A stretch of DNA of 64,000 nt from Chiloscyllium plagiosum (taxonomy: Eukaryota): positions 17,437,306 through 17,501,305 of the forward strand of contig NC_057727.1 in the NCBI RefSeq assembly GCF_004010195.1. Reading direction: 5' to 3'. Positions 41 through 59,565 of this stretch are shown piece after piece. The notes below the pieces were generated by a model. The model saw only the letters and a list, made by a program, of their open reading frames with translations. It did not search any database and was not told where the DNA came from. The position numbers and the translations under genes are program-made. Numbering within the stretch: the first letter of the stretch is position 1; each line of letters opens with the position of its first letter.

Positions 41-1553
41 TAGGCGTTAGGCGTGCACCTGCATGGGCCCCAGCTTTGCCTGCCTCTTCGTCGGATATGT
101 GGAACAGTCCATCTTACGCAGCTACACTGGCACCAGCCCCCACCTTTTCCTCTGCTACATCAATGACTGTATCGGTGCTACCTTATGCTACCACAAGGAG
201 GTTGACCAGTTCATCCACTTTTCTAACACCTTCCACCCCGACCTCAAATTTACATGGACCGTCTCGGACTCCTCCCTCCCCTTCCTAGACCTCTCCATTT
301 CTATCTCGGGCAACCGACTCAACAAGGACATTTACTATTGACCGACTCCCACAGCTACCTAGATTACACCTCCTCCCACCCTGCCCCCTGTAAAAACACC
401 ATCCCACATTCCCAATTCCTTCGCCTCCGCTGCATCTGCTCCCAGAAGGACCAATTCCAATACCAAACAACCCAGATGGCCTCCTTCTTCAAAGACCGCA
501 ATATCCCCTCAGACGTGGTTGATGATGCTCTCCACCGCATCTCCTCCACTTCCCGCTTCTCCGCCCTTGAACCCCGCCCCTCCAATCGCCACCAGGACAG
601 AACCCCACTGGTCCTCACCTACCACCCCACCAACCTCCAGGTACATCGTATCATCCTTCATCATTTCCACCACCTCCAGACAGACCCCACCACCACGGAT
701 ATATTTCCCTCCCCTCCCCTATCAGCATTCTGGAAAGACCACTCATCCGCGACTCCCTCGTCAGGTCCACACCCCTCCCCTATCCAACCTCCACTCCCGG
801 CACCTTCCCCTGCAACCGCAAAAAATGCAAAACTTGCGCCCACACCTCTCCCCTCACTTCCCTCCAATGCCCCAAGGGATCCTTCCATATCCGTCACAAA
901 TTCACTTGCACCTCCACACACATCATTTACTGCATCCGCTGCACCCGATGTGGCCTCCTCTACATTGGGGAGACAGGCCGCCTAATTGCGGAACGTTTCA
1001 GAGAACACCTCTGGGACACCGGCACCAACCAACCCAACCACCCCGTAGCGGAACACTTTAACTCCCCTTCCCACTCTGCCAAGGACATGCAGGTCCTTGG
1101 CCTCCTCCATTGCCAGACCATGGCAACACGACGCCTGGAGGAAGAGTGCCTCATCTTCCGCCTAGGAACCCTCCAACCACGAGGGATGAATGCAGATTTC
1201 TCCAGCTTCCTCATTTCCCCTCCCCCCACCTTATCTCAGTCCTAACCCTTGGACTCAGCACCATCTTCTTGACCTGCAATCTTCTTCCCGACCTCTCTGC
1301 CGCCACCCCTCTCCGGCCTATCACCCTCACCTTAACCTCCTTCCACCTATCTCATTCCCAACGCCCCTCCCCCAAGTCCCTCTAGCCTACCTTTTATCTT
1401 AGCCTGCTTGGCAAACCTTCCTCATTCCTGAAGAAGGGCTTATGTCCGAAACGTCGATTCTCCTGCTCCTTGGATGCTGCCTGACCTGCTGCGCTTTTCC
1501 AGCAACACATTTTTCAGCTCTGATTTCCAGCATTTGCAGTCCTCACTTTCTTC
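41..1553 (+). mobile_element. Penelope-like retroelement, 3' part (RT C-terminus, GIY-YIG endonuclease, terminal repeat), frameshifted
   Basis: MGPSFACLFVGYVEQ..YINDCIG (YIDD-like RT motif), LPFLDLSISI, then CNRKKCKTC..YCIRCTRCGLLYIGETGR..ERFREH (GIY-YIG) across frames. Stop TAA at 1243-1245, followed by a pyrimidine-rich UTR and a terminal repeat containing a hammerhead core. Confidence 0.9.
1424..1459 (+). ncRNA. Minimal type I hammerhead ribozyme motif in the Penelope terminus
   Basis: attc-CTGAAGA-a-GGGC ttat GTCC-GAAA-CGTC-gatt: conserved core, stem II, palindromic stem III (ACGU) and a GUC cleavage triplet. Stem I pairs only partly. Confidence 0.8.
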
Positions 1554-1733
1554 CAATATGGCACAATGTGTGGATCTTCTTGTAATTACTATACTTTATC
1601 TGTAGGATGCTGCATAGAAACCTGTGGTGAAATTTGTATTAGATTAAAGGAACCACACTGCAAGTCATTTCTATGTGATTGTTGTAACATCACTGGACAA
1701 TTTCCTCCAGCTTTGTGATAAATTCCTACTTAC

Positions 1734-1917
1734 CATCAAAATCGCAACCATCAGAATCGCCAACACCATCATCCATGTCATTTTCCCCGTTGATTAGCTT
1801 ATCCTTTTTCTGAGGGCTCCTCGGGGGTTTAGGCACCTTCTTCTCTAACCACCCTCTGTTGCGTAGACTTTGTCGGATTAGTGGATATGGACCGTAGATA
1901 GTAAATATCCTTTTTAG
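1734..1917 (-). CDS. TTLL3: TTLL3 (tubulin monoglycylase) coding exon
   Basis: ttag|CTA...GAT G|gtaagt. Encodes [61 protein letters not shown], which matches the TTLL3/8 motif KKIFTIQG.YPVIR..LR.RGWVEKK. Synteny with ARPC4 favours TTLL3. Confidence 0.9.
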
Positions 1918-2439
1918 CTAAGTCATGAGAATGTTTATCAATTACTTACTACTTACTGAAAATATACTTCTTATTCACTTTTTAAAACAGAAAACAATGC
2001 TAGCTCATAACATATCTCATTGCAGAGCCTAACTTATCCAAACAAACGAACAAATATTTCCTCTGCGCATCGCAGTGATTTTCACAGTTTCATTATGCAT
2101 GTCATTCTATAGTGATGCTTTATTATGCCAATCATTTCTCTGACTATTCTGCAGTCGTTTTTAAGTAGATTTATCTTCAATTATATTAAGTATTTCAGAG
2201 CTGACAGAAAAATATAATTTCTATTTTTGTTTCACAGATTCACTGCCAAAGTTTTTGGAATCTATGATAGAGCAGAAAGGAGAATCTGCACAGACTCCAC
2301 AATACCCAGCAACCCACGAAACCAGTGTGAATCTTTCCTCACTAACATATTGCGCTTTCGGAGGAAGGTTGCAATTTTGGTATCATTTCGTAGCAAATGA
2401 AGGGGAAGTTTTATTGCCTGTAGGAACTAGGGATTGCAT

Positions 2440-3285
2440 GTTTGACAAGTTGTGTGAGTGGCAAATACATGGCAGATGAAGTATAATGTAGATAACTATG
2501 AGGTTATCCACTTTGACAGCAAAAGCAGGAAGACATATTATTTCTGAATGTCCTCGTACACCAGTTGCTGAAAGTAAGTATGCAGGTACAACAGGCAATG
2601 AAGAAGATGAATGGTATCTTAGCCTTCAGTGAGAGGGTTTGAGTGCAGGGATGTCTTGCTACAATTGGTAGCTTTGGTGAGACCACATCTGGAGTACTGT
2701 GTCAATCTTGGTCTTCTTATCTGATGATGGATGTTCTGGCTGCAGAGAGAGTGGCACCAAGATTTACTTGACTGATTCCTAGAGTGGCAAGAATGGTGTT
2801 TGCAGAGGGACTGGATAAATGAGGACTATATTCACAGAGTTTAGAGGAATGAAGGGGGTGGTCTCAGAAAAACCTACATAGTTTGGGCGGCACAGTGGCT
2901 CAGTGGTTAGCACTGCTGCCTCACAGCGCCAGAGACCCAGGTTCAATTCCCGCCTCAGGCAACTATCTGTGTGGAGTTTGCACATTCTCCCTGTGTCTGC
3001 GTGGGTTTCCTCCGGGTGCTCTGGTTTCCTCCCAGTCTAAAAATGTGCAGGTTAGGTGAATTGACCATGTTAAATTGCCCGTAGTGTTAGGTGAAGGGGT
3101 AAATGTAGGGGAATGGGTCTGGGTGGGGTTGCTCTTCGGAGGGTCGGTGTGGACTTGTTGGGCCGAAGGACCTGTTTCCGCACTGTAAGTAATCTAATCT
3201 AATTCTAACAGGACCAAACATATCAAATGTTCCTGATGACGAAGGAGTCCAGAATCATGAGCACACCAATCTAAGAATAGTGAAG
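2440..3285 (+). mobile_element. Old CR1 3' fragment interrupted by a SINE
   Basis: Degenerate W Q..Y N..K C E V I H F and LVRPHLEYCV motifs; the element resumes after the SINE at about 3203. Confidence 0.7.
2885..3202 (+). mobile_element. HE1-type tRNA-derived V-SINE
   Basis: gggcggcacagtggctcagtggttagcactg (A box), ggttcaattccc (B box), V-domain tgtggagtttgcacattctccc..gggtttcctccgggtgctc, CR1-like 3' end and (aatct)n tail. Confidence 0.9.
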
Positions 3286-3292
3286 TCAATGC

Positions 3293-6200
3293 AGGAGAGA
3301 GAGAGAGAGAAAGAAAGAAATTGACACTGCCCTTGCTGTTTGAATTCATATATCGCTGGACATTGGAGTGTATCTGGGAAATTTAACAAACAGTGAAATT
3401 CACAACTGATCTTAAAGGAACTGTTGGGAGAAGTTCACAGCACAGAATCAGATAAGTTAATTGTTTTAGGTGGCCTACAGAAAATCTGCAGTAGTGAGTA
3501 GAGTGGGTCCTTTCTTGATTATATGTTTTTAGAGATATGCCTCTTGATTAAACTTAAAATATAAGCCATAACTATTAATTTAACCTGGGGCAGTGTCTGT
3601 AGAGGAATAAGATGGCGTTATTGCTGGGTCTGTAGATTGTAAAGGAGCAAAAATGGCCGTTAGTAGAGTGATATGTGTTTCTTGTCAGATGTGGGAGTTT
3701 AAAGAGAGTTTAAGAGTTACTGCGGATTATATCTGCCATAAATGCTATTGGATGCGAATCTTATCAGATCAAATAGATTGGCTGGAGAGACAGTTCAAAG
3801 CAATGAGGAATTTGCAACAACTATAGCATGTGATGGATGGCAGTTATAAGAAAGGGGAAAGTCTCAGATACAGTCACATAGATGGGTTAACTCCCGGAAA
3901 GATAAGAGAGGAGTCTTTTGTGGCGATATCCATTTCAAACAGGTATGCTGTTTTGGAAAATGTAGGGGGTGATGGATTCTCAGGGGAATGTAGCACGAAC
4001 AGCCAAGTTTCTGGTATTGAGACTGGCTCTAATGCAACGAGGGGTACGTCAGGTTCCAAGAGATCAATTGTGTTAGGGAATTCTCTAGTCCGAGGTACAG
4101 ACAGACGTTTCTGTGGCCAGCAGCGAAAAAACAGAATGGTGTGTTGCCTCCCTGTCTCAGGGAGGCAACACACCATTTCAAGGATGTCTCAGAGAGGGTG
4201 CAGAATGTTCTCATGTGGGAGAGGAGCCACATTGGAACTAACGACATAGGAAGGGAAAAGGTTGAGATTCTGAAGGGAGATTACAGAGAGTTAGGCAGAA
4301 ATTTCAAAAGGAGGTCCTCGAAAGTAGTAATATCTGGATTACTCCCGGTGCTACGAGCTAGTGAGGGCGGGAATAGGAGGATAGAGCAGATGGATGCATG
4401 GCTGAGGAGCTGGTGTATGGGAGAAGGATTCACATTTTTGGATCATTGGAATCTCTTTTGGAGTAGAAGTGACCTGTACAAGAAGGACAGATTGCACCTA
4501 AATTGGAAGGGGACTAATATACTGGCAGGGAAATTAGCTAGAGCTGCTTGGGAGGATTTAAACTGTAAGGTGGGGGCATGGAGGGTGGGACCCAGGGAGA
4601 TAGTGAGGAAAGAGGTCAATCTGAGACTGGTACAGTTGAGAACAGAAGCGAGTCAAAAAGTCAGGGCAGGCAGGGACAAGGTAGGACTAATAAATTAAAC
4701 TGCATTTATTTCAATGCAAGGGGCCTAACAGGGAAGGCAGATGAACTCAGGGCATGGTTAGGAACATGGGACTGGGATATCATAGCAATTACAGAAACAT
4801 GGCTCAGTGATGGGCAGACTGGTAGCTTAATGTTCCAGGATACAAATGCTACAGGAAGGATAGAAAGGGAGGCAAGAGAGGAGGGGGAGTGGCATCCTTG
4901 ATAAGGGATAGCATTACAGCTGTGCTGAGGGAGGATATTCTTGGAAATACATCCAGGGAAATTATTTGGGTGGAACTGAGAAATAAGAAAGGGATGATCA
5001 CCTTATTGGGATTGTATTATAGACCCCTGAATAGTCAGAGGGAACTTGTTTCTTAATTTTCCCAGACGCACTCCGATGTCCAGTGATACATGAATTCAAA
5101 AACAGCAAAGGCAGTAACTGTGCAGGTTCTCTCTCTCTCTCTCTGTCTCTCCTGCTCTGTCCTCACCATGTGCTTCCTTTGTCTGTTCTTCTCCCTTTTA
5201 AAACTGCTGTTGTTTTGACTTTTTTTTCCCAAAGTTCCAAAACAATGCAACAGTAATTGCTTCTCCTGGAATTCGAGGAAATCACCTCCAACACCGAAAA
5301 TACCTCAAAAAAAGGAGCAGCTGTTACAACCAGAAATTTTTCCCGTCCTCCATCTTGGATTACCCAGAATCCTTGTGGTAGGGGATTTTAACTTTCCAAA
5401 CATAGACTGGGACTGCCATTGTGTAAAGGGTTTAGATGGAGAGGAACTTGTTAAGTGTGTACAAGAACATTTTCTGATTCAGTGTGTGGATGTACCTACC
5501 AGAGAAGGTGCAAAACTTGACCTACTCTTGGGAAATAAGGCAGGGCAGGTGTCTGAGGTGTCAGTGGGGGAGCACTTTGGGGCCAGCGACCATGATTCTA
5601 TTAGATTTAAAATAGTGATGAAAAAGGATAGACCAGATCTAAAAGTTGAAGTTCTAAATTGGAGAAAGGCCAATTTTGACGGTATTAGGCAAGAACTTTC
5701 AAAAGCTGACTGGGGGCAGATATTCACAGGTAAAGTGACGGCTGGAAAATGGGAAGCCTTCAGAAATGAGATAACGAGAATCCAGAGAAAGTATATTCCT
5801 GGTAGGGTGAAAGAAAATGCTAGTAGGTATAGGAAATACTGGATGACTAAAGAAATTGAGGGTTTGGTTAAGAAAACGAAGGAAGGATATGTCAGGTATA
5901 GACAGCATAGATCGAGTGAATCCTTAGAAGAGTATAAAGAAAGTAGGAGTACACTTAAGAGGGAAATCAGGAGGGCAAAAAGGGGACATGAGATAGCTTT
6001 GGCAAATAGAATTAAGGAGAATCCAAAGGGTCTTTACAAATACATTAAGGACAAAAGGGTAACTAGGGAGAGAATAGGGCCTCTCGAAGATCAGCAAGGC
6101 GGCCTTTGTGTGGAGCCACAGAAAATGGGGGAGCTACTAAACGAGTATTTTCCATCAGTACTTACAGTGGAAAAGGATTTGGAAGATATAGACTCTCGGG

Positions 6201-8052
6201 AAATAGAGGGTGGCACCTTGCAAAATGTCCATATTAGAGAGGAGGAAGTGCTGGATGTCTTGAAACGCATAAAGGTGGATAAATCCCCAGGACCTCATCA
6301 GGTGTACCCTCGAACTCTGTGGGAAGCTAGAGAAGTAATTGATGGGCCTCTTGCTGAAATATTTGTATCATTGATAGTCACAGGTGAGGTGCTGAAAGAC
6401 TGGAGGGTGGCTAACGTAGTGCCACTGTTTAAGAAGGGTGGTAAGGACAAGCCAGGGAACTATAGATCAGCAAGCCAGACGTCGATGGTGGACAAGTTGT
6501 TGGAGGGAATCCCGAGGGACAGGATGTATATGTATTTGAAAAGACAAGGACTGATTAGGGATAGTCAACATGGCTTTGTGCGTAGGAAATTATGTCTCAC
6601 AAACTTGATTGAGTTTTTTGAAAAAGTAACAAAGAGGATTGATGAGGGCTGAGCGGTAGATATGATCTATATGGACTTCAGTAAGGCGTTTGACAAGATT
6701 CCCCATGGGAGACTGATTTGCAAGGTTGGATCTCATGGAATACAGAGAGAACTAGCTATTTGGATACAGAACTGGCTTAAAGGTAGAAGACAGAGAGTGG
6801 TGGTGGAGGGTTGTTTTTCAGACTGGAGGCCTGTGACCAGTGGAGTGCCACAAAGATCGGTGCTGAGCCCTCTACTTTTTGTCATTTACATAAATGATTT
6901 GGATGTGAGCATAAGAGGTGCAGTTGGTAAGTTTGCAGATGACATCAAAATTGGAGGTGTAGTGGACAACAAAGAGGAATACCTCAGACTACAACAGGAT
7001 CTTGAAGAGATGAGCCAATGGGCTGAGAAGTGGCAGATGGAATTTAATTCACATAAACGCAAGGTGCTACATTTTGGGTGCTACATATGATAAGGTCCGA
7101 GGGAGTGTTGCTGAACAAAGAGACTTTGAAGTGCAGGTTCATAGCTCCTTGAAAGTGGAGTCGCAGGTAGATAGGATAATGAAGAAGGCATTTGGTATGC
7201 TTTCTTTTATTGGTCAGAGTACGAAGTACAGGAGTTGGGAAGTCATGTTGCGGCTGTACAAGACATTGGTTAGGCCACTATTGGAATATTACGTGCAATT
7301 CTTACCTCCTTTGTATTGGAGTGCAGGTTCATAGCTCCTTGAAAGTGGAGTTGCAGGTAGATAGGATAGTGAAGAAGGCGTTTGGTATGCTTTCCTTTAT
7401 TGGTCAGAGTATTGAGTACAGGAGTTGGGAGGTCATGTTGCGGCTGCACAGGACATTGGTTAGGCCACTGTTGGAATATTGCATGCAATTCTGGTCTCCT
7501 TCCTATTGGAAGGATGTTATGAAACTTGAAAGGGTTCAGAAAAGATTTACAAGGATGTTGCCAGGGTTGGAGGATTTGAGCTATAAGGAGAGGATGAACA
7601 GGCTGGGGCTGTTTTCCCTGGAGCATCAGAGGCTGAGGGGTGACCTTATAGAGGTTTACAAAATTATGAGGGGCCTGGGGTGGAGGAGTCCAGAACTAGA
7701 GGGCATAGGTTTAGGGTGAGAGGGGAAAGATATAAAAGAGACCTAAGGGGCAACTTTTTCACACAGAGGGTGGTTCGTGTATGGAATGGGCTGTCAGAGG
7801 AAGTGGTGGAGGCTGGTACAATTGCAACATTTAAGAGGCATTTGGATGGGTATATGAATAGGAAGGGTTTGGAGGGATATGGGCCAGGTGCTGGTAGGTG
7901 GGACTAGATTGGGTTGGGATATCTGATCGGCATGAATAGGAAGGGTTTGGAGGGATATGGGCCGGGTGCTGGTAGGTGGGACTAGATAGGGTTGGGATAT
8001 CTGATCGGCATGGACAGGTTGGACCGAAGGGTCTGTTTCCATGCTGTACATC
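3293..8052 (+). mobile_element. Near full-length CR1 (HER-like) LINE, inactivated
   Basis: GA-rich 5'UTR. ORF1 from 3653 (CVSC..CHKC zinc finger; SGNH esterase GNSLVRG, HIGTND, DRLHLN) carries a stop and frameshifts. ORF2 has APE motifs (YFNARGL, IAITETWL, GDFNFP) and RT motifs (KSPGP, QHGF, DFSKAFD, FADD, LVRPLLEYC), followed by a CR1 3' tail. Confidence 0.95.
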
Positions 8053-9550: not shown

Positions 9551-9610
9551 NNNNNNNNNNNNNNNNNNNNNNNNNNNNNNNNNNNNNNNNNNNNNNNNNN
9601 NNNNNNNNNN
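9551..9610. other. Assembly gap
   Basis: 60 N bases. Confidence 1.
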
Positions 9611-10400: not shown

Positions 10401-10905
10401 TTCTAATTTTACATTCTACTATAAAATAATATATTCATTATTACTTTTGCTTTCCTTAATGTAAAACTTGCCACTGGGGCTAAGGAATAATGCTGACAAG
10501 GAAGAGAGCTATTTGCACGTAGAACCTGCACACGTCATGGTTGATGTTGATTTTTGTTTGATATTTGCTTTCACTGAGGTCTTGCTGAGTCACACACCAG
10601 TAGGTGATGTTGCAAGAGTGGTAAAATATAGAATATCAGTTTTCACCTTCTTACATTTATCTTTGATACCCGAGACAATCATGGGCTAAAATCATTTTTA
10701 TATGGGCAAAAAAAAATCACCTGAACACAAAGTGCGTCAAATTCAGGAAGCCAATGTGAAATACATGAAATCATTTGAACTGAATTGATCATTTTATCCA
10801 AAGGCATGGAAACCAGTTAATTGAGTCAAGCAAGAAGAAATTTAGATCTAATTTACACTTGTATGAACAAATTTTTTGATTAGATTCCCTACAGCATGGA
10901 GACAG

Positions 10906-12860
10906 ACATTTGAAATCAGAAGGTTGGGAAGGCTACAAAAACAAACAGAGGATAACAAAGAGAGAAATAAGGAAGGAGAGGATCAAATATGAAGGTAGGC
11001 TAGCCAGTAATATTAGAAATGATAGTAAAAGTTTATTTCAATACATAAGAAACAAACGGCAGGCAAGAGTAGACATTGGGCCACTTCAAACTGATGTTGG
11101 AAGCCTAGTGATGGGAGATAAGGAAATGGCTGGAGAACTTAATAAGTACTTTGCGTCAGTCTTCACAGTGGAAGACATGAGTAATATCCCAACAATTAAA
11201 GGGAGTCAGGGGGCTGAGTTGAGTATGGTTGCCATTACAAAAGAGATAGTGCTAGAAAAGCTAAAAGGTCTTAAAATTGATAAATCTCCTGGCCCCGATG
11301 GGCTACATCCTAGAGTTCTGAGGGAGGTGGCTGAGGAAATAGCGGATGCGTTGGTTGAGATCTTTCGAAAGTTACTGGAGTCAGGGAAAGTCCTGGATAA
11401 TTGGAAGACCATTGTTGTAGCCCCATTGTTCAAGAAAGAATCAAGACAAAAGATGGAAAATTATAGGCCAATTAGCCTAACCTCGGTTGTTGGTAAAATT
11501 CTAGAATCCATCGTTAAGGACGAGGTTTCTAAATTCTTGGAAGAGCAGGGTCAGATTAGAACAAGTCAACATGGATTTAGTAAGGGGAGGTCGTGCCTGA
11601 CAACCCTGTTAGAATTCTTTGAAGAGGTGACAATTAGGTTAGACCAGGGAAACCCAGTGGATGTGATCTATCTAGACTTCCAAAAGGCCTTTGATAAGGT
11701 GCCACATGGAAGGCTGCTTAGTAAGGTGAGGGCCCATGGTGTTCGAGGTGAGCTATTGGCATGGATTGAAGATTGGCTGTCTGACAGAAGGCAAAGAGTT
11801 GGGATAAGAGGTTCTTTTTCGGAATGGCAGCCGGTGACAAGCAGTGTCCCACAGGGTTCAGTGTTGGGGCCGCAGCTGTTCATGTTATATATTAATGATC
11901 TGGATGAAGGCACTAGGGGCATTCTAGCGAAGTTTGCCGATGATACGAAAATAGGTGGACAGGCAAGTAGTACTGAGGAAATGGGGAGGCTGCAGAAGGA
12001 TCTAGATGGTTTGGGAGTGGTCCAGGAAATGGCTGATGAAGTTCAATGTGAGCAAATGCGAGGTCTTGCATTTTGGACAAAAGAATACAAGCATGGACTA
12101 CTTTCTAAACCGTAGAAAATTCATAAAGCCAAAGTACAAAGGGATCTGGGAGTGCTAGTCGAGGATTCTCTAAAGGTAAACATGCAGGTTGAATCCGTGA
12201 TTAAGAAAGAGAATGCAATGTTGTCATTTATCTCAAGAGGGTTGGAATATAAAAGCAGCGATGTGCTACTGAGACTTTATAAAGCTCTGGTTAGGCCCCA
12301 TTTGGAGTACTGTGTCCAGTTTTGGGCCCTACACCTCAGGAGGGACACACTGGCACTGGAGCATGTCCAGCGGAGATTCACACGGATGATCCCTGGAATG
12401 GTAGGTCTAACATACGAGGAACGGCTGAGGATCCTGGGATTGTACTCATTGGAGTTTAGAAGGTTAAGGGGAGATCTAATAGAAACTTACAAGATAATAC
12501 ATGGCTTGGAAATGGTGGACGCTAAGAAATTGTTTCCGTTAGGTGAGGAGACTAGGACCCGTGGGCAGAGCCTTAGAATTAGAGGGGGTCAATTCAGAAC
12601 AGAAATGTGGAGACATTTCTTCAGTCAGAGAGTGGTGGGCCTGTGGCATTCATTGCCGCGGAGTGCAGTGGAGGCCGGGACGCTAAATGTCTTCAAGGCA
12701 GAGATTGATAAATTCTTAATGTCACAAGGAATTAAGGGCTATGGGGAGAATGTGGGTAAGTGGAGTTGAAATGCCCATCAGCCATGGTTAAATGGCGGAG
12801 TGGACTCAATAGGCCGAATGGCCTTACTTCCACTCCTATGTCTTATGGTCTTATGGTCTA
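10906..12860 (+). mobile_element. 5'-truncated, relatively young CR1 LINE (RT region)
   Basis: 401-aa and 205-aa ORFs with KSPGPDGLHP, NYRPISLTS, YLDFQKAFDKVPH, FADD and LVRPHLEYC; (tcttatgg)n tail. Confidence 0.95.
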
Positions 12861-14209: not shown

Positions 14210-14342
14210 TATCAAGGGGAAGGGTCAGTCGACCCAAATCGTTAACTCTGATTTCTCTCCACAGATGCAGCCAGACCTGCTGAGCTTTTCCAGCAATTTC
14301 TGCTTTTGTTTCTGATTTACAGTATCTGCAGTTCTTTCCATT
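14210..14342 (+). mobile_element. Older Penelope-terminus-derived short repeat
   Basis: gaagggtcagtcgacccaaatcg..agatgcagccagacctgctgagcttttccagca..tgatttacagtatctgcag; flanked by duplicated ttgatccaatatcaa. Confidence 0.7.
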
Positions 14343-42501: not shown

Positions 42502-42672
42502 ATTTTTGAGGAACTCTTCTGCAACAATGCGAGCTCTGGCATTTAATGACAGTTTCATTTCGCTGACTTCCTTGTCAATCTCCTCCATGAAATGAATGAC
42601 AAAGTCAACCAGTTTATGTTTGTACATTTGTTCAGTATGGAAGTTGGTGATCAGGAAACTGATGTCATAGCC
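42502..42672 (-). CDS. ARPC4: ARPC4 exon 5
   Basis: gacag|GGC..AAT|gtgagt; [57 protein letters not shown] (171 nt). Confidence 0.97.
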
Positions 42673-44885: not shown

Positions 44886-45189
44886 AGAGGAGCAGTACAT
44901 CATAGGCATAATATTGAATGCTACTTGAAAGAAACACGAGAGAGTAAATAGAACACAGAATATATTCTGGGTGGGGGACTTCAATATCCATCATGAAGAA
45001 TAGCTTTGTAACAACTGACTGAACTTGTTTCTTCAAAGGATATAACTGAGCCTGAAGTGACCCTGACTATTTTAGAGGCATCTCCACAATTGACTACTGT
45101 GCAACCTTTGTGGAGACAAAAAAAAACTGCCTTCACCTGGAGGATGGGATCATATGAAATAGGATTGAAATAGTTTGCTCCATTATTCA

Positions 45190-47230
45190 CCTAAATCCTG
45201 GCTTATCTTCTATCTGTAAGCCATTTTTCCCTGTAGTATCTCTATTTCCCTGAATGGATTTAATATTTGGAAATTTATCAATCACTGCTTTGAACATACT
45301 CAGTGACTGAGCTCTCACACCTCTATGGGTTAGAGAATTCCCAAGCTTCACCACCAAGGGAATAATTTACTTCCCAGCTCAGGCCTAAATAGCCTAGCTT
45401 TTATTCTGAGACTGTTCTTGAACCTGCAAATTCCATACCCACCCCCCCCAACCAAGATAAACATGCATCCTGCAGTTACCTTGTCAAGCACTGCTACAGC
45501 CTTTGAGATCATCTCTCATCCATCTAAATTCTAGACAATGCAGGCACAGACTCCACAAACGATCATTACCAGATAATCCCACCATCCCAGGATCTCAATT
45601 GGTGAAAGTCTGTCACAGTTCAATGGAAAGTAGGTCCTTTATTAGGTAAAGAGATAAAAACATACAATACATACAATAAATCTATACTATAGACCAGGTG
45701 CAGTCTCAACAAGGTACGACATAACTACAGCAACATATCTCTATTCTTATACTCAAATTAATTTGTATTAAAGGCCAAAATACTTTCCTAATTGCTTATT
45801 GCATTTTTATATCAGCACTGTAACTCATGAGCCAAGGTCTCTTTGGATATATTTCCCAATCTCTCACCACTGCAGAAATGTTCTGCACTTACCACTTATG
45901 ACCACTTATCCACATTATATTCCATTTGCTAGGTCTTGCCCACTCAATCTGTCTAAACTCTTGAATCCTCAATTCACATTTTCATCTTGCTTTTTTTTAA
46001 AAAACAAATGAACTAGAAATATTACATTTGTTCCCCACATTCAAATAACTGATATGGATTGTAAAGAGCTAGAGCCTAAGCATTCATCATTGCAGTATGC
46101 TGCAAGTCATTGTCTAAGCTAAAAATGACTCATTTGGTTTATTTTGCTTAACCTCTAGTGTGGTAAGTCATTGAAAGCCTTGAAAATAAAAAGTACACCC
46201 CATACATTGGTTTCACATTACCCATTCTTCAGTTACATCCTCAAAAACTCCAACAGATATTCATATTGATTTTGTCCAGTCTTACCCTTTTTTTTTGGTT
46301 TAAGTGCCTAGTTATCACATCCTTGTAATAAGATTCTAGCCTTACGACTGATGTCAGACTAACAGGTCCATTGATCCTAGTTTTCTTTTCTCCTGCCTAC
46401 TTCCTACGTTTGCTACTTTCCAATTTGCAGAATATTGCAAGATGACCAACATATCCACCACTTCTACAGCAACACATTGGGATGCAGAACGTCAGATCAA
46501 GGGGATTAATCAAATTTCAGTCCCACTTTCTCGCAGTACTTTTTGTTTTTAAAATATACTGATATTAACTTCTCAGTTCCACAATCTCACTAGTAGCTTG
46601 CTTCTTGCTTCTCTAGTATTTCCATGAAGTTTTTTGTATCTTCCTCCATGAAGACAAAGTATTTGTTTAGCTTCTCCACCATTACAAACTTTGTTTCTGC
46701 CCTATAGTGGTCGCACCGATGTCTTTGCTAACCTTTTCTTTTACATACCTACAGAAGATATTATAGCCAATTTTTATTTCTTGCTAGTTTACTTTCGTAT
46801 TCTATTTTCTACTTTAGTTCCTAGGACCTCCTTTGTTAATATCTAAAAATGCTCTGAATCTTCAGGCTTATAAAGTTTCCAAAAAAAAATTGTATGTCCC
46901 TTCCTTTGATTTAATAAAATCTTTAACTTGTCAGCCATGGTTGGATCACTTTTGCTGCTGAGTTTTTCTGCACCTCAAAAAGAATGTATATTTGTAGTCA
47001 ACTCTATTAATTCCTAAATGCTGGTTGATTCCCATTATTGGGAAACTATATTAAAAGGAGTGAAAACAATCTATTGTCCCACATAGCTTCCCTCACCAAG
47101 ACTCTAGACTCAGATTGAACTGTACTACTTTTGAACTCAACATAAAATTGTCAGGTGATGGCCACTCTTCCCTAGAAGCTTCTTTATAAGATTAGTTAAC
47201 CTTCTGTCATTGCCCAGTACCATATGTAAA
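45190..47230 (-). mobile_element. Highly decayed CR1 LINE
   Basis: Reverse-strand CR1 tail and RT remnants (taacaggtc = YRPV-like; agaattcccaagcttcaccacc = VVKLGNSL). Boundaries approximate. Confidence 0.5.
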
Positions 47231-47407
47231 GTAGAAAGGAGGGATCATATCTGTTTGCACTATTAATTCATCTACCATACAATGAATGTTGTGTGCATTA
47301 AGATGAGTTAAACACTATCATTTATAAACATAGAACAGTCCAGTACATCACAGCACAGGCCCTTCAGCCCTTGATGTTGTGCCAGACTTTTATCCTATTC
47401 GAAGATC

Positions 47408-48690
47408 AGGCTTTGTGCATGGGAAATTATGTCTCACAAACTTGATTGAGTTTTTTGAAGAAGTAACAAAGAGGACTGATGAGGGCAGAGCAGTCGATGT
47501 GATCTATATGGACTTCAGTAAGGCATTCGGCAAGGGTCCCCATGGGAGACCGATTAGCAAGGTTAGATCTCATGGAATACAGAGAGAAATAGCCATTTGG
47601 ATACAGAACTGGCTCAAAGGTAGAAGACAGAGGGTAGTGGTGGAGGGTTGTTTTTCAGACTGGAGGCCTGGAGTGCCACAAGGCTCGAGGCTGGGTCCTC
47701 TATGTTTTGTCATTTACATAAATGATTTGGATGCGAGCATAAGAGGTACAGTTAGTAAGTTTGCAGAAGACACCAAAATTGGAGGTGTAGTGGACAGCGA
47801 AGAGGGTTACCTCAGATTACAACAGGATCTGGACCAGACGAGCCAATGGGCTGAGAAGTGGCAGATGGAGTTTAATTCAGATAAATGTGAGGTGCTGTAT
47901 TTTGGGAAAGCAAATCTTAGCAGGACTTATATACTTAAGGGTAAGGTCCTAGGGAGTGTTGCTGAACAATGACCTTGGAGTGCATGTTCATAGCTCCTTG
48001 AAAGTGGAGTCGCAGGTAGATAGGATAGTGAAGAAGGCGTTTGCTATGCTTTCCTTTATTGGTCAGAGTATCAAGTACAGGAGTTGGGATGTCATGTTGC
48101 GGCTGTACAGGACATGGTTAGGCCACTGTTGGAATGTTGCTTGCAATTCTGGTCTCCTTCCTATCAGAAATATGTTGTGAAACTTGAAAGGGTTCAGAAA
48201 AGATTTACAAGGATGTTACCAGGGTTGGAGGATTTGAGATATAGGGAGAGGCTGAACAGGCTGGGGCTGTTTTCCCTGGAGCATTGGAACCTGAGGGATG
48301 ACCTTATAGAGGTTTACAAAATTATGAGGGGCATGGATAGGATAAATAGGCAAAGTCTTTTCCCTGGGATCGGGGAGTCCAGAACTAGAGGTCATAGGTT
48401 TAGGGTGAGAGGGGAAAGATACATATATATAAAAAAAAAGACCCAAGGGGCAACTTTTTCACGCAGTGGGTGGTGGTACGTGCATGGAATGAGCTGCCAG
48501 AGGACGTGGTGGAGGCTGGCACAATTGCAACATTTAAGAGGCATTTGGATGGGTATATGAATAGGAAGGGTTTGAGGAGATATGGGCCGGGTGCTGGAAG
48601 GTGAGACTAGATTGGGTTGGGATATCTGGTCGGCATGGACGGGTTGGACCGAAGGGTCTGTTTCTATGTTGTACATCTCTATGACTCTAA
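47408..48690 (+). mobile_element. 5'-truncated CR1, same family as 3293-8052
   Basis: GFVHGKLCLTNLIEFF, DFSKAF, GVPQGS and LERVQKRFTRMLPG motifs plus tail. Confidence 0.95.
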
Positions 48691-49089
48691 GTGTGGAGCA
48701 TAAATTTATCTGCTGGTGCACTTTTGTTTGAAAGACACCGACTATATACTACCATATATATTAAGTCCCTTATTGCTATCTTGCTCCTTGCCCTTTCTCT
48801 TTATCACATCTTTCATCACCTGATTCCTTACCCGCACTGTTTCGTTTAAAGCTACTGCCCTAGTTATACAACTTGCTAGAATACTGGTCAGGGCACAGTT
48901 AAATCCCCATAGTACGTCCCTTTTCCCAGCACAGAATCACTATTCCAAGCATCAATCATGCAGTGTTGATCAGATTTTGAATTTCAAGAGTATCCATGAG
49001 GTGCCATCAGCAGAATTCCACTAAAAAAAATCAGTCACCTTGTAGCCTTGCAGATTCCTTTGCTCAACCAATAAAATGAAGACAAAAAT

Positions 49090-49745
49090 CCAATGATAGT
49101 TCAATAAGAAGTCTAAGGGAGCTTGACAGGAGCATTACATACACCTAAGTATAATGGTGAAACTACAACACACGACTAATGAATATTAAATTGAAGGCAG
49201 TATGCTATAGAGATCCAGCCAATCCCACAAGTAATTTAAAAATTCAGCACTTCTGCTAAATTCTAAGGTGAGTTACTTGTATTCTGACTCTAAAATCCTT
49301 TCACCATTTACAAGGCACAACTCAGGAAAGTGACAGAATACTTTCCACTCATACAGGTTTGCACAGCTTCAGCTATAGTCAAACTCAACACAGGCCAGGA
49401 CAAAGCAGACTTCTACCTCAAATATTTGTTGCCTCCACAAACGATGTGCTGCAGTTGCATTTGACATTGTCTACAAGATGTAATATGGTAACTTATGGCC
49501 ATCAAGAACATTCACAAACCCATTCACGCATGACCATGGACAGCGAGTGCAAGGGCACACTACCAGCCACAAGTTCTTCTCTAAGTCACAGTGACTTGGA
49601 AATATATTACATAAAATCCATGAACTCCTTAGATATGATAAAAGGTGTACCTTCAGGACCTGCAATGTAGCAGCAGAACACTGTTCATCACCTTTGAGGT
49701 TAATTAGGGATGGGCTATAAATGTCACTTGTCAGCAACATTCATA
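49090..49745 (+). mobile_element. Decayed non-LTR retrotransposon 3' end
   Basis: TIYKAQLRKVTEYFPL (YKAQVR..MEYSPL-type motif) and the tail aattagggatgggctataaatg. Confidence 0.55.
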
Positions 49746-50122
49746 ATCTAACATAAAAGTATTGAAGTTTGATGTCTCAATTATAAGCTTTGATAGTGTA
49801 TAGGACATGATCTAGGCAGAGAATGGTGCCCAAGTCTGTTTCAAACCAGCGGACTGGTTGAAATCTGTTGATACATGCCTGCCCACCCTTTCTCTCAGTA
49901 CCTTAACACATCACCAATGGGGTCCTGAATTGTCCAAGGGAAGACAATAGAATTTCTTTAAGTTTCAAACAGGGGCTGAAAGAAAGAGGATCTGCAAGCA
50001 ATAATACGCACAATGTTTTGATTAAACTAGAGTTTAGATTTTTGACCAAATAATCATGCTAAATGGAGTAAAATAGTATGATGCATTCATGGACGTCCCG
50101 AATGAAGCATGGAAAAGATTTT

Positions 50123-51085
50123 GGTGAAGATTTGTAGTTCAGGTTGTAAGTTTGCTTGCTAAGCTGGTAGATTTGTTCTCTGACATTTTGTCACCATGCT
50201 AGGTAACATCATCAGCAAGCCTCCAATGAAGCACTCATGTTCTGTCCTACTTGCTATTAATTTGTCTTGGTCTGTTGTGGTGGGTGATATCGCTTCCGGT
50301 TCTTTTTCTGAGAGGTTGGTAAATGAGGGCCAACACACTGCAGCACCCAGGGATTACAAGAAGCTGAGAAAAAACACTTATACAAAGTATTCAGGAACAA
50401 CAGGTACCTGATGAGTGTAGTCCGCTCATTCCTTCACAACAGATTAAACAAGACAACAACACACCCAGAGTCTCTTGCCACCCTGCCATACGTTAAAGAC
50501 GTCTCAGAGATGATGACCAGACTACTCCAGCTCCTTGGCATCATGGTAGCCCAGACAAACCTATCACTATATAAACAGCTCCTGATGAATTTAAAGGACC
50601 CTGGTACCAACAACCAGCAAAACAAATGTCATATTCAAAAATAGCCTGCAAAGACGGCAAGAAACATTATTTTGGACAAATGGGCAGGAAACTAGCCACT
50701 GGGATACATGAGCACCAACTAGCCACTAAAAGACATGACCAACTATCACTAGTATCCATACGCACAGATGAACAAGGAGACCAGTTCGACAGGGACAATA
50801 TATCCATCCTGGGACAGGCTAAACAAAGACACACACGGTAATGTCTAGAGGCCCGGCATTCAAACTGGAACTCCATTAACAAACATCGATTTGAACCCCA
50901 TTTACCAACCTCTCAGAAAAAGAATTGGAAGTGATGTCACTCACCACAACAGACCAAGACAAATAAACAACAAGTGGGACAGAACGCCAGCGCTTCATCA
51001 GAGGCTCACTGATGATGTTACCTAGCATGGTGACAAAACATCTGAGAACAAATCTATCAGCTCAGCAAGCAAACTTACAACCCAA
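50123..51085 (+). mobile_element. Penelope-like element (third family): inverted terminal copy, GIY-YIG 3' part and terminal repeat
   Basis: ATLPYVKDVSE, YFGQMGRKLATGIHEHQLA; about 50140-50325 is the reverse complement of about 50898-51082; both copies carry decayed hammerhead cores. Confidence 0.88.
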
Positions 51086-51261
51086 AATATTACTATATTC
51101 TGCAGGGGAGGCACTGAGAGCAGATGGAGAACAAGACAAACACAGGGTATCCACAGATCAGTGGACTCCAAGTGCCCTCAGGTCCTCAACACTATCAAAG
51201 ACAAGTACAGCAAAAATAAGTCTTAAACAGTTAATTGCATTTAACTATATATTGGTATTAC

Positions 51262-51357
51262 CTCAACAGCTTTCCTCCGGAGAATGAAGAAATTCTCTGC
51301 TCTCATCATCATAAATCTCATGAACTTATGACAAAGGATCTTTTCAATCTCATCTGC
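51262..51357 (-). CDS. ARPC4: ARPC4 exon 4
   Basis: tacag|GCA..GAG|gtaata; [32 protein letters not shown] (96 nt). Confidence 0.97.
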
Positions 51358-51699
51358 CTGTAAATGGAAATAAAACTTGAACAGGTACAATTTCTAACCT
51401 TTCTACAGCCAAAGACTGGAGGTACACTTTTAAAGTAGTGATGTTTTTGAGGGAAGTTTTTATAAACACACACAGTAGCACATGTGGAATTACCAACATA
51501 CCCACTGAAAACATTTTGTAGGATGCTGCAGAAGGGACAAAAATCTAGTTCAAATCTGGTATGTTAAAACAAATAGGAATAATATGCCACATGTTTATAA
51601 AGATATATTTTTCTCCAAAAAAAAAGGAAGCATTCGTAACAGGCTGGAAAATCAACACCTTGTCTCCATAAAACCAATTTTCGCTGACCACCACGGCTC

Positions 51700-53330
51700 A
51701 GATGTTAACCATCACAGGACGCCATTTGGCCCATTGTGTACACACCAAAGATCTGACTACATTAAACCCATTTTCCATCTTTTGGCTCACAGCCCTAGAG
51801 GTAATGGCAATGCAAGAGAGTATCTAACTACTAAAATGTTGAAAGGTTCTGACTCCATGTTATTTCAGGCAGTAAGCTTTAGATTCCTGGAACAGTTCTG
51901 AATGAAAAAAACGTTAACTTCAACTCTCCTCTCAGCATTCTGCCTCAGTTAGAGTCCTACAGCATGGAGATAGGCTTTTGGCCCAAACTGGTCCATGCCA
52001 TCCAAAGTGTCCACTTACACTCACCCAATTTCCCTGCACTTGGTCCATATCCTTCTCAAGCTTTCCTATCCATGTATTTGTATAAATTCCTTTTAAATGT
52101 TTTTAATGTACCCAACTTAACCACTTCTGCTTACAGCTAATTCCATATGTGTACCACTTCTGTAAAAACAAATTTGCCACTCAGGTTCCCTTCTATTCTT
52201 TCCCCTATAGTCCTCGAATCCTCAACCCTGGGAAAAAGACTAACTGTATTCACCCTATTGATGCCTCTCATGATCTTATACACTTTTATAAGATTCCCCC
52301 TCAATCTCCTGCACTCTAAAAGAAAAAAAACTTAGTTTGTCCAATCTCCCTATAACTCAGACCTTCGGGTCCTGGCTACATCCTCGTAAATTTCTTCTGC
52401 ACTCACTGCAGTTTAATAACATTCTTCTCATAGCAAAGTGATCAAAATTGAACACAATCCTCCAAGTGCGACCTCAACGTCCTGTACAACTGCAACATAT
52501 CCTAACTTCTATACTTGATGTCCTGACTGATGAAGGCCAGTGTGCTAAAAGCCTTGCTCACTGTCCTGTCTACCTGTGACTCCATTTTCAAAGAACCATG
52601 CACCTGAACTCCAAGGTCTCTCTGTTCAACTACACTTAAGGCCCTGCAATTCACCATGAAACTCCTACCTTGATTTGATTTTCCAAAATGCAAGAGCGCA
52701 CACTTATCAATAGTAAATTCCATTTGCCATTTCTTGGCCTACTTCCCCAGCTGATTTTGGTTCTGCCGCAGTTTCCAATAACCCTCCTCACTGTCCATAA
52801 TACTGCTTATTTTAGTGCCATTTGCAAATTACTAACCATGCCTTGTACATTCTCATCCTCTTGTCTTAAAATCTACATTCCTGTGGTTATTGACCAATCT
52901 ACTAATAAAGTGCCTTCCTATCAACCCTCAATCTTGTGTTTCTCAGGTCCCATTTCAACCTTTGCTGCTCCAAAAGGAAACCAATTCTAGCCTGTCTAAT
53001 CTTTCCTTATTGCTAAAACCAAGCATCCTAGTAAATCTCTTCTGTGATATCTTTAGTGCAATCATATCTTTCCTGTAATTTAATCACCAGAACTGTACAC
53101 CATACTCCAGTTGTAGCCTAACCAGCACTTTTTAAAAGAGTTCCAGCATAACTTCCCTGCACTTGTATTCTATCCCTTGACTAATTAAAAAGTATTGCAT
53201 ATGCCTTCTTGACTGCCTTATCCACCATCCCTACTACCTTCAGGGATCTGTGGAATTGCACGCCAAGATCCCTCAGATCTTCTGTACTTCCATGAATCCT
53301 AACATTAATAATATATTCCATTTGGCCTTG
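51700..53330 (-). mobile_element. Nested CR1 3' fragments
   Basis: Minus-strand ORFs MEF..DKC.LLHFGKSN..EQRDLGVQVH and RDLGVQFHRSLKV; reverse tails at about 51710 and 51950. Confidence 0.85.
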
Positions 53331-53675
53331 CTGGACTAATTTCTTTCTTAATAAACCTGTGTTTCCTCTGCTTTCCAAGTTCTCATGTTTTAATTTATAA
53401 TTCCACCTTAACTCCCACCCAACTCTTCTGAATTACTTGCCAGGATCCCATCTGTGTGTTAATCTAACGAGGTGACCTAAAATTCTGCTCCAGGAAATGA
53501 ATGGAAAATGTTATTTCACAGATTAGGTGTTATGTTGCAGAAGGGGGCCAATCAGTCCACTGTACCTGCCCCGGATCATTAATTGAGCATCTACCATGCT
53601 CCTCCTTTTTCCCCATACCCAATTCCAAATCTTACTAACAACAAATACAGTCTAAAAGCCAAATGAGATACTGAC

Positions 53676-53787
53676 CTGTTTGATTGCAATGCTGACTCGT
53701 ACAGAATTTATTGAGCCCTCAATGAGGACTTTCTCCTTCTCATTCCTGCTGATGATCAAGGGCTGCAACAGCAGCTCTTTACTGCTC
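53676..53787 (-). CDS. ARPC4: ARPC4 exon 3
   Basis: atag|G AGC AGT..CAG|gtcagt; [37 protein letters not shown] (112 nt). Confidence 0.97.
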
Positions 53788-54102
53788 CTATCATGGGTCA
53801 AGAAAACATGCATTACTATCCCATACTTAGAATGCATCCGAGGGCTTTTCAATTATTTAGTGCCCCAGCACTAAATTTGTTTTGCATATAAGTGCATTGC
53901 TAGCAATCATCTTAAAAGTTATATACAGATTATATGCTTTCTGTTGCACTTTCCACAGAAAATCCAAAACTAAACATATTCAAATTTATCCCTAGAGTCA
54001 GAAAATTATACTGAATTTTTTCTTGCCCCCCTCAACTCCCTAGATGATGCTTAGTGAAAACTGAAAATTAACCCAAATATTTAGCTACCAAGTATGCCCT
54101 AC

Positions 54103-54218
54103 CTCACTTCCACTTCAGGTTTATTATGGCGCTCCACAACTTGTGATGAGAAGTTTTCCAAGCAGAGTGCAGCTTGAAGTGTGGCACGGACTGCATTCAG
54201 GTACGGACGGAGTGTTGC
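54103..54218 (-). CDS. ARPC4: ARPC4 exon 2
   Basis: caaaag|GCA..GTG AG|gtaggg; [39 protein letters not shown] (116 nt). Confidence 0.95.
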
Positions 54219-54446
54219 CTTTTGAAAGGAGAGATAAACAAAGTAATAAAGCTTAGAAGACCATCTGGGCAATTGCAAGGACTACATCCATATTGGAAAT
54301 ATCCCATTTTAATCTGTACATTAAAATTTATTTCATTACAAAACATTTGTTAGGACAAGTATAGTGTCATGGATGACAGCTCTCAGGATAGTGGACTATG
54401 TCATTTCATTATTTCCCTTTAACTAATGGGCAAAGTCTACTATCAG

Positions 54447-54674
54447 GAGAAAGTGAGGACTGCAGATGCTGGAGATCAGAATCGAAGAGTGTGGTGCTGG
54501 AAAAGTATAGCCAGTCAGGCAGCATCTGAGAAGCAGGAGAATCAACATTTTGGGCATAAGCTCTTCATTAAGGCTTCATTCACTCCTGATGAAGGGCGTA
54601 TGCCCGAAACATCAATTCTCCTGCTCCTTGGATGTTGCCTGACTGGCTGTGCTTTTCCAGCACCATACTCAATA
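54447..54674. mobile_element. Palindromic Penelope-terminus-derived insertion with TSD
   Basis: tctactatcag at 54436-54446 and 54675-54685; two inverted copies; + strand core CTGATGA-a-GGGCgtatGCCC-GAAA from 54586. Confidence 0.88.
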
Positions 54675-57839: not shown

Positions 57840-58300
57840 AGAATGTTTTTGGGAATGAGGACGATGAGGACTTTCAGTTTGAAAGTTAGATCGAAGAAAC
57901 TGGAGCAGTTCTTGGAGAAGAGAGGAGTGAGAGGAGATCAGATTGAAATATTCAAAATCATTTGAGACCTGGAAAAAGTAAATAGGGAGGAATGTTTCCA
58001 CTTGTGAACGGATCAAGAATGAAAGGGTACAGGTAAAAAATCATTAATTTAAAAAAACAAATGTGATATGAGGAAGTCATTTTTCACACAGTGAGTGTTT
58101 AGGGTCTAGAATACACTACCTGTGAGTGTTTTGGAGAAGATTCAATTAAAGCATTAAAAAATGGAATTAGACGGTTATTTTAAAAGATGAATGTGCAGGA
58201 GTTTGGAGAAAAGACAGTAGAATGGCACTAGGTGAGGTGTTCACTTTGAAGACCTAGTACAGACATGCTGGGCCAAATGGCAGCCTTCTGTGGCTCTGTA
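57840..58300 (+). mobile_element. CR1 3' end
   Basis: GDQIEIFKI, FFTQ.V motifs and the tail tgggccaaatggc. Confidence 0.7.
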
Positions 58301-58885
58301 TAAAAGGCATTTTACTATAGATACCAAAGTTGAAATAATGGAATAGTTGGTTTATAAACAGAAAGCAGCTGAATCCGCAGCCACTACCAACCTGAGGTAA
58401 AAGAGGCAGATCTTGAGTCAATAAAGGAAAATGGTTAAACTGGTTTAGTATTTATAATTTCAACTGACTCATAGACTAGAAAACTCAGCTAGAAGAAGTG
58501 ACAAAATGCTCAGGAAATAAATGGTGTCACTGGAATAAACAAAAAACAAATTGGTGGTATATTGAATACATTTTTAATGGCACTTCACATTAATGATGCT
58601 ATCACTTAAAAAAATCGTGGCCCTGCGCCAAGGGATACTTGTTGACCCTCTGATTTTTCTGGATGATTTTGAAGAGCTTGTTTCAATTATAGTACTTGTT
58701 TTTAAAATCTGTTTGGAAGCCATCAGTCCGCTGATAGACTAGAGAAGTTTTCACAGTCTTCATTTCTTGCACCCGTGTAATAAGCCTTGCACTTGCTATG
58801 TTATTATTAATCAGAAATACTATGTACAATTTGAATCAGGTTAGTTTTCTTTACAGATATTAGACAAACTTTCTACGTGCTCAAG

Positions 58886-59092
58886 ATGAGTGAACTAAAA
58901 GACTGCCCACTGCAGTTCCATGATTTTAAGCCAGTAGATCATGTGAAGATGTGTCCCCGCTATGCAGCTGTACTCTCACGCTCTGAGGATGATGGAATTG
59001 GAATCGAGGAGCTGGACACATTACAGCTGGAGTTGGAAACACTCTTGAGCTCAGCGAGTCGGCGACTGCGCATACTAGAGGCAGAAACACAG
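58886..59092 (+). CDS. TADA3: TADA3 first coding exon (exon begins at 58857)
   Basis: MSELKDCPLQFHDFKPVDHVKMCPRYAAVLSRSEDDGIGIEELDTLQLELETLLSSASRRLRILEAETQ; ttacag| acceptor and CAG|gtaaga donor. Confidence 0.97.
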
Positions 59093-59445
59093 GTAAGAAT
59101 GATGCATGAAGCTATTTGGCTGCATTCACTGGAGTGGTAACTCACCATAGTTCTTCTAATGGAGGAACAGTAAAGAGGAATAAATCACTAGTGGGAATAA
59201 TCCAAAACAACCCCCACCCCAAAAACAACCCATTAATTTTGATGTAGAACAAAATATACAAGAAGAAATCTTGGCACCTTGTGAAAAAGGGACAACAATA
59301 ATTGAGTAATTTTACTCTACATACAATCTGAAAAAAAATATTGACAATAGTACCCCATCAATAATGAGTTCATAGAATACTTTTGAGAGCAGCATGTTTT
59401 GGAACCAACTAGAGAGCCGAATATACCAGACTGGATATTGTGTAA

Positions 59446-59565
59446 GGAGAAAGTGAGGACTGCAGATTCTGGAGATCAGAGGTCGAGAAAAGCACAGCAG
59501 GTCAGGCAGCATCCGAGGAGCAGGAGAATCGACGTTTCGGGCAAGAGCCTTTCATCAAGAATGGG
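59446..59565 (-). mobile_element. Penelope-terminus-derived short element with 10-bp TSD
   Basis: tattgtgtaa at 59436-59445 and 59566-59575; mutated core TTGATGA..GAAACGTC on the minus strand. Confidence 0.85.

Follow-up and report, generated by a model that had tools for sequence, protein, structure and literature searches.

In a 64,000-nt stretch of the bamboo shark Chiloscyllium plagiosum (contig NC_057727.1, positions 17,437,306 to 17,501,305; hereafter the window), the hammerhead-bearing terminus of a Penelope-like element (PLE) recurs as short insertions without an open reading frame (ORF). These short copies are real and are mostly explained by known Penelope biology, and the ribozyme-processed family proposed in the first-pass annotation of this DNA is unsupported. 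We slightly favor, at a little better than even chances, the reading that they are fixed-length insertion products of endonuclease (EN)-bearing PLEs of the Neptune type, primed at a fixed terminus and ended by run-off at the 5' end of the transcript. The features considered are collected in Table 1.

Termini and boundaries of the short copies

A BLAST search of the window with positions 1380-1580 as the query finds all five short copies listed in the first-pass annotation (20029, 29031, 40241, 54447, and 59446). Each of them matches 1423-1553 of a longer PLE copy with E values of 1e-29 to 1e-45, the matches being 20029-20147(+), 29032-29147(-), 40240-40369(+), 54447-54572(-), and 59446-59563(-), and two further inverted arms are found by the same search. 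The main arms are 80-93% identical to the long copy, so that the five-site recurrence of the 130-bp terminus stands. A terminus profile made from ten arms gives 12 strong matches at 10 loci and one weak match, with none in the reversed window; because most of the strong matches were in the profile, it is a copy count and not a test. Of the three relatives proposed earlier, those at 14210 and 28012 are distant but genuine (65% each), whereas 18149 is not matched by the terminus profile and has only the hammerhead architecture in common.

The 3' end of all five main arms coincides with that of the long copy, ~98 nt downstream of the predicted scissile bond (after 1455 in long-copy numbering). 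This co-terminal 3' end and the homology to the terminus identify the short copies as PLE insertion products and uphold their suggested origin from Penelope termini. The 5' ends are clustered as well. In all seven arms of the short family they lie 20-34 nt upstream of the cleavage site, mapping to 1423-1426 at 40241, 1423-1424 at 59446, 1426-1428 and 1422-1423 in the two arms at 54447, 1436 and 1427-1430 in those at 29031, and 1434 at 20029. Thus seven of the eight family arms, the eighth being the long copy, begin within a 15-nt interval (1422-1436) at the 5' edge of the hammerhead. Under geometric truncation with any tested mean, the probability that seven of eight arms fall into any 15-nt interval is p <= 1e-5; with the six independent loci only, it is p <= 0.038, or 2e-5 if the lack of copies shorter than 110 nt is counted. 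The window contains no copies primed at the terminus of 40-110 nt or of 135-1490 nt, and no second match to 57-1422, nothing upstream of 1422 being repeated. Within the window, therefore, the lengths of short copies, which the first-pass annotation had suggested comparing, are clustered and not continuous. The same 5' landmark is found in other families, at 28012, at 14210, and in the second arm of 18149. Since all or most of the hammerhead, with the cleavage site, lies inside each copy, the template of the short copies was uncleaved RNA, and the ribozyme did not set the ends of the short-family copies.

Target-site duplications at homology-defined junctions were found at six of the eight named loci, with lengths of 7-15 bp (Table 1). 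Among 1500 random position pairs, a score of 7 occurs in 1.5% and a score of 11 in none; thus the claim that most copies have duplications of their own is confirmed. None was found at 20029 and 28012; the imperfect 16-bp repeat that brackets 20029 (19991/20170) is not accepted as one, since it has three mismatches beside a 99%-identical copy. The optional tail of 30-40 bp was not seen: the duplications adjoin the terminus, and the flanks of the long copy and of 20029 have no common sequence.

The copies at 20029 and 40241 differ at one of 119 bases, and each differs from the long copy by 14-16% (84-86% identity). This subfamily B is distinct from the one long copy compared, in a single window, while the diagnostic bases do not distinguish 59446 from the long copy. 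An AATAAA hexamer (40320-40325 and 20098-20103) and a fully paired stem I are found in subfamily B, and the long copy lacks both.

Not all of the named sites are the stand-alone single insertions that they had been taken for. At 29031, 54447, and 18149, as well as in an old pair at 21249, two arms meet at their 5' ends. A single duplication encloses both arms at 29031, 54447, and 18149, so that three of the eight named loci carry an inverted 5' arm. The arms of a pair overlap in sequence, therefore the same stretch was copied twice. Both arms have four diagnostic bases in common at 54447 and two at 29031, so each pair derives from one type of RNA. The second arm stops internally, and the short arm at 29031 ends at a 4/5 match to the target end. 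These head-to-head pairs fit the extension of both nicked target strands, and the three named double copies have the known inverted geometry of the PLE pseudo-long terminal repeat (pLTR). Together with the duplications and the common 3' end, the inverted arms support mobilization by the Penelope reverse transcriptase (RT)/GIY-YIG protein, as was originally supposed.

Table 1. Penelope-derived features and host exons in the window
Feature	Position	Strand	Remarks
Penelope-like ORF remnant	57-1242	+	5'-truncated, frameshifted; C-terminal half of RT, Cys-rich linker, GIY-YIG endonuclease; Neptune-type architecture
C-rich 3' untranslated region, long copy	1246-1422	+	missing from all short copies
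Terminus (pLTR core), long copy	1423-1553	+	initiator-like heptamer, minimal hammerhead, downstream stem domain, fixed 3' end
Minimal hammerhead, long copy	1424-1459	+	predicted cleavage after 1455
TTLL3-like exon	1729-1917	-	match to PDB 5vlq
Solo terminus, older related family (65%)	14216-14342	+	decayed hammerhead at 5' end; 15-bp duplication 14201-14215/14343-14357
Head-to-head double copy, unrelated terminus family	18149-18325		intact hammerhead 18246-18274(+); 12-bp duplication
Solo terminus, subfamily B	20029-20147	+	99% identical to 40243; begins inside hammerhead, first core box missing; duplication not found
Old decayed head-to-head pair, related family	21249-21604		second arm split by ~110-bp later insertion; absent from first-pass list
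Related-family terminus (65%)	28012-28106	-	5' end at hammerhead edge, 3' part missing; core intact, stem I damaged; duplication not found
Head-to-head double copy	29032-29200		main arm 29032-29147(-), short arm 29145-29200(+), 94% identical over 50 columns; both hammerheads broken; 13-14 bp duplication 29018-29031/29201-29214
Old decayed related terminus	38700-38905		terminus 38797-38903(+), weak inverted arm upstream; absent from first-pass list
Simple solo terminus, subfamily B	40243-40369	+	sole short-family copy with fully intact minimal hammerhead; 7-bp duplication 40236-40242/40370-40376
ARPC4	42454-54281	-	exons, Pfam
Internally deleted Penelope-like remnant	43960-44340		own hammerhead core at 44237; in ARPC4 intron, nested beside LINE fragments
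Penelope-like remnant	50142-51082		GIY-YIG frame, Cys linker not seen; 187-bp inverted ends with a decayed hammerhead in each (50215, 51009)
Head-to-head double copy, subfamily C	54447-54670		main arm 54447-54572(-), 7-nt templated filler, second arm 54581-54669(+); exact 11-bp duplication 54436-54446/54675-54685
Candidate first coding exon	58886-59089	+	no match in atlas or PDB
Simple solo terminus	59446-59563	-	internal 13-nt deletion; 13-bp duplication with 1 mismatch; core C3 mutated

The long copy and the hammerhead motif

The long Penelope element noted earlier is present, but is itself 5'-truncated and frameshifted. Its GIY-YIG domain is recognized by Pfam (E 1.3e-4), and Chiloscyllium punctatum (70 and 83%) and Rhincodon typus, the whale shark (65%), supply the nearest named proteins among 59 matches. 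Since a three-frame alignment with an 894-aa full-length relative reaches only residues ~508-890, the copy at 57-1553 is a dead truncated one of Neptune-type architecture and not a source element. The order of RT and GIY-YIG in one ORF, here only its frameshifted C-terminal half, is that of EN-bearing (EN+) PLEs, and a CxxxxCxxC linker is visible in the translation at the RT-EN junction. The 3' untranslated region (1246-1422) has no second match in the window, and the upstream flanks of the short copies agree with it at 9-14 of 40 bases. A heptamer at 1422-1428 resembles the initiator consensus; only one other is found in the 176-nt 3' untranslated region. A Cys-rich Zn-finger-like linker between RT and EN, as seen here, is the mark of the Neptune clade, and Nematis has a linker too (PMC8557442). 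Directly upstream of the truncated copy lies a G-rich stretch (1-56), whose origin, like any duplication there, would be at or beyond the edge of the window.

A strict hammerhead descriptor matches at three positions (1428, 18246, and 40245) and in none of eight Markov resamples of the window. A relaxed version gives six matches against 0-3 in these nulls and hence was not used for counts. The expectation of hammerhead cores that are intact or decayed is thus borne out, with three of the motifs intact. As to their number, put at about a dozen, inspection yields ~14 in the window, but only three pass the strict descriptor, and three others, at two loci, come from longer remnants (44237, 50215, and 51009). 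The features of the minimal type I hammerhead, that is, core boxes, stem II, palindromic 15.2/16.2, U-H, and stem I, are all present in one of the seven short-family arms, while in the other six, at the five named loci, the first core box is missing or the core is changed. The predicted fold of the 40240-40369 copy has stems I and II with an open core and agrees with the published consensus of minimal PLE hammerheads. The type I assignment made earlier fits this consensus, but the "short palindromic stem III" is only a 2-nt pair (C-G/G-C), so that a monomer has no helix III. Rfam hammerhead models at E <= 10 match neither the whole window nor 40200-40420; because these models expect helix III, their silence is not evidence against the motif. 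Covariation in the stems amounts to two both-sided changes in nine rows, and 192 of 500 shuffles score as high; folding of whole termini is not more stable than that of shuffles (z from -1.5 to +1.1). A minimal type I hammerhead is supported by sequence match, and its self-cleavage is predicted.

The motif agrees with the minimal hammerheads described in PLEs in the core box, the extra base, a 4-bp stem II with a G-C base, GAAA, the palindromic 15.2/16.2, and a short stem I, and its layout is nearly that of the Acropora Neptune and Nematostella examples (PMC4209133). According to that study by Cervera and de la Pena (2014), minimal hammerheads are mostly single dispersed motifs related to truncated PLEs, with thousands per genome, and opposite-strand pairs 100-700 bp apart were already reported there. 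In its available text the ends of copies are not mapped, and cartilaginous fish are not among the rows of Fig. S3 compared.

A coding role of the terminus was considered and rejected: reading frames shift between copies, and a translation profile search gave one unrelated chance match. Judging by the indels between copies, the terminus is probably non-coding.

Insertion mechanism and its alternatives

According to the reading that we favor, the Penelope protein would nick AT-rich target DNA, and reverse transcription would always be primed inside the RNA at the same position, ~98 nt beyond the point of hammerhead cleavage. The terminus would be both the 3' end of genomic copies and the transcript start in the tandem element, as is known for other PLEs. 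Uncleaved RNA, derived mostly from full-length masters, would be copied up to the 5' edge of the hammerhead, most likely the 5' end of the RNA, producing a stub of 118-131 bp with a duplication of 7-15 bp. In some insertions the second target strand, too, would be extended with RNA of this kind as the template, in many cases starting at an internal microhomology, and a head-to-head double copy would be left. The hammerhead itself would be a passenger that decays and does not define the ends.

Several of these steps have precedents. The Penelope protein of the anole (Poseidon of Anolis, PAc) in vitro starts reverse transcription internally, 111-118 nt into an ORF that has its start inside the hammerhead. 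It cuts both strands and extends them, and its template is unprocessed RNA, hammerhead mutants being inserted normally (PMC11167929). In Penelope, the start site and an internal promoter lie within the pLTR (PMC2377424), and inverted 5'-truncated copies are typical of PLEs (PMC8557442). An internal RT start combined with a start site in the pLTR would therefore give a short run-off cDNA whenever priming occurs at the terminus at the front of the RNA. The behavior of PAc thus predicts the geometry of the short copies: an RT start slightly more than 100 nt downstream of the hammerhead, extension of both strands, and an uncleaved template. PAc differs in belonging to another clade and in that its ORF starts inside the hammerhead (PMC11167929), whereas here the terminus is argued to be non-coding. 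Neptune-type EN+ PLEs resemble our elements in the order of RT, Cys-rich linker, and GIY-YIG, in the hammerhead in the terminus, and in having an inverted 5' copy enclosed by a single duplication about as long as those seen here (8-10 bp in Adineta; PMC8557442, PMC3846280). In contrast to them, the insertions described here are mostly terminus-only, with a fixed 5' boundary, both inverted arms short, and the tail of 30-40 bp not seen.

Several points weigh against this scenario. The sample is small, six loci, and the arms of one locus are not independent. Initiator-like motifs are common, 774 in 64 kb or one per 83 bases, and so the heptamer is weak support. The transcription start, as well as the position of the ORF behind the terminus, is placed by analogy with other PLEs. 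The two longer remnants, 43960-44340 and 50142-51082, extend well upstream past their hammerheads, so that the 5' stop is family-specific and does not extend to every clade. Only one arm, the main arm of 18149 (18149-18243, minus strand), has a 5' end within ~3 nt of the cleavage site, as a cleaved template would give, and it is a possible trace of such a template. Finally, a short-only lineage would account equally well for the 99% identity between 20029 and 40241 beside their identity of only 84-86% to the long copy.

Such a lineage would be a self-propagating non-autonomous family, independent of ribozyme processing, in which a stub with an internal promoter and an RT start signal is recopied in trans like a SINE (short interspersed element) transcribed by RNA polymerase II. 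It has the insertion mechanism in common with the favored reading and differs in the source of the RNA. We consider it unlikely: the same boundary is found in at least three subfamilies and in three other families, a sign of a common mechanism more than of a single short master; no diagnostic bases separate 59446 from the long copy; and the two 99%-identical copies differ in their 5' ends, the promoter being hypothetical.

Random 5' truncation of the ordinary kind, through low processivity in the synthesis of full-length cDNA, could be expected, as PLE copies are in general heavily 5'-truncated (PMC8557442; PMC8969392), the long copy itself is truncated, and solo motifs were ascribed to truncated PLEs in 2014 (PMC4209133). 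The tight clustering of all seven 5' ends and the missing length classes make it very improbable, and the first-pass alternative of extreme 5' truncation is disfavored on the same grounds. No more credible is recombination between the direct terminal repeats of a full-length insertion, analogous to the formation of solo LTRs (long terminal repeats). It would leave one terminus with a fixed 5' end in one duplication, and solo pLTRs of Adineta were ascribed to recombination or deletion (PMC3846280). The 5' ends are spread over 15 nt, though, head-to-head pairs with a second arm stopping at an internal microhomology are left unexplained, and 130-bp repeats are probably short for such frequent recombination.

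The explanation that fares worst is the retrozyme-like one, in which cleavage by a dimer hammerhead frees a unit RNA, perhaps circular, for insertion by Penelope proteins. Animal non-LTR retrozymes, thought to use PLE proteins, are likewise short, ORF-less, and pLTR-related, with a type I hammerhead and solo monomers (PMC7229834; bioRxiv 10.64898/2026.07.22.740005). The 2026 preprint derives them from pLTRs and counts solo monomers, including one chondrichthyan (bioRxiv 10.64898/2026.07.22.740005). The motif fits the minimal consensus, and one arm, the main one at 18149, begins close to the cleavage site. Retrozymes are, however, defined by tandem units of 150-450 bp, mostly canonical hammerheads, self-cleavage, and circular RNA, and of these features the copies in the window show none. 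None of the seven family arms begins or ends at the cleavage site, and the 13 loci contain no head-to-tail tandem pair and no permuted junction, so that the label "ribozyme-processed" is not supported. The paired hammerheads cannot form a cis dimer on one transcript because they are on opposite strands. The core is intact in one of seven arms, and folding the best copy explicitly as a double hammerhead (-14.3 kcal/mol) brings no gain over two monomers (-15.4). Since minimal hammerheads also cleave poorly even as dimers (PMC4209133), we find this the least probable of the explanations considered.

Other termini, host setting, and abundance

Two loci in Table 1, 21249 and 38700, are additional old copies. 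At 21249 the arm-to-arm score exceeds that of all 300 shuffles, and no duplication was found there; the insertion that interrupts this copy (21386-21497) is flanked by a 9-12 bp repeat. The terminus at 38797-38903 matches the profile with E 5e-20, having been part of it, and its inverted arm is weak, 2-10 of 300 shuffles being as good. The end of an 89-bp direct duplication (27740-27828 and 27926-28013) coincides exactly with the 3' side of the 28012 copy, where that copy is broken. In the 50142-51082 remnant, presumably of the Poseidon type by its motifs, a PLE-protein profile matches the GIY-YIG frame (E 2.4e-4), and a protein search with the neighboring 50327-50641 frame gave no match. A TATA-like word lies ~50 nt upstream of the hammerhead core in this remnant, and likewise at 44184.

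Among the host genes, the exon at 1729-1917 is taken by us to belong to TTLL3, and that at 58886-59089 presumably to a TADA3-like gene, a name for which no tool gave a match. CpG-rich stretches lie at 28-29 kb and 55-57 kb. The introns are filled with many fragments of CR1-type long interspersed elements (LINEs) and with a SINE, which we take to be tRNA-derived and HE1-like (2884-3200, 5219-7940, 10880-12770, and 47334-48690). Six of the seven non-inverted copies and all three intact hammerheads are antisense to, or just downstream of, a host gene (p ~0.06, with gene extents partly inferred); this bias may reflect selection against sense insertions.

Outside the window, a word search of proteins found two C. 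plagiosum FUBP3-like isoform models (P0061/P0062), whose C-terminus reads through a terminus copy flanked on each side by the same five residues, the pattern expected from a target-site duplication. The read-through is possibly an exonization or a gene-model artifact; it shows that the terminus family is present elsewhere in a bamboo shark, and does not show where an ORF begins. Stray shark DNA was looked for in bacterial and archaeal genome contigs, with no hits.

The 13 loci, including the two longer remnants and 18149, correspond to ~200 per Mb (108-347), and if the window is typical, the very large genome-wide number anticipated earlier is supported. The extrapolated density of ~47 intact motifs per Mb (10-137) is far above the 4,000 per genome in coelacanth and 9,000 in Xenopus (PMC4209133). 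The motif and its dispersed ORF-less occurrence are already known, and no new class is opened. A literature search, with most subscription papers outside it, found no description of the shark copies or of a fixed 5' boundary at the hammerhead. Such stubs may already be present in the genome coverage plot of the template in Fig. S2 of PMC11167929, and the supplements of the 2026 preprint (bioRxiv 10.64898/2026.07.22.740005) may list the shark families.

A bolder possibility, to which we give little credence, is that carpet sharks carry a minimal Penelope parasite of ~130 nt, a unit that would open with an internal transcription start, contain the hammerhead, and close with the RT start signal. 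Self-transcribed and re-mobilized to hundreds of thousands of copies, it would make theirs the genome densest in ribozyme motifs among the vertebrates examined; the head-to-head copies would then be an in vivo fossil record of two-strand priming by the Penelope dimer, and the arm at 18149 would be a rare instance in which hammerhead cleavage during the transposition cycle left a trace.

For tests of mechanism, these copies are useful through their density, their double arms, and their fixed 5' boundary. They are a natural experiment on the role of the Penelope hammerhead and on the origin of the pLTR and of inverted structures. With ~200 ends per Mb, such a genome provides very many junctions from which to read the start and stop points of reverse transcription and the frequency with which cleaved RNA is inserted. 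A count of hammerheads in genomes of this kind mostly reflects decaying transposon stubs and not working ribozymes.

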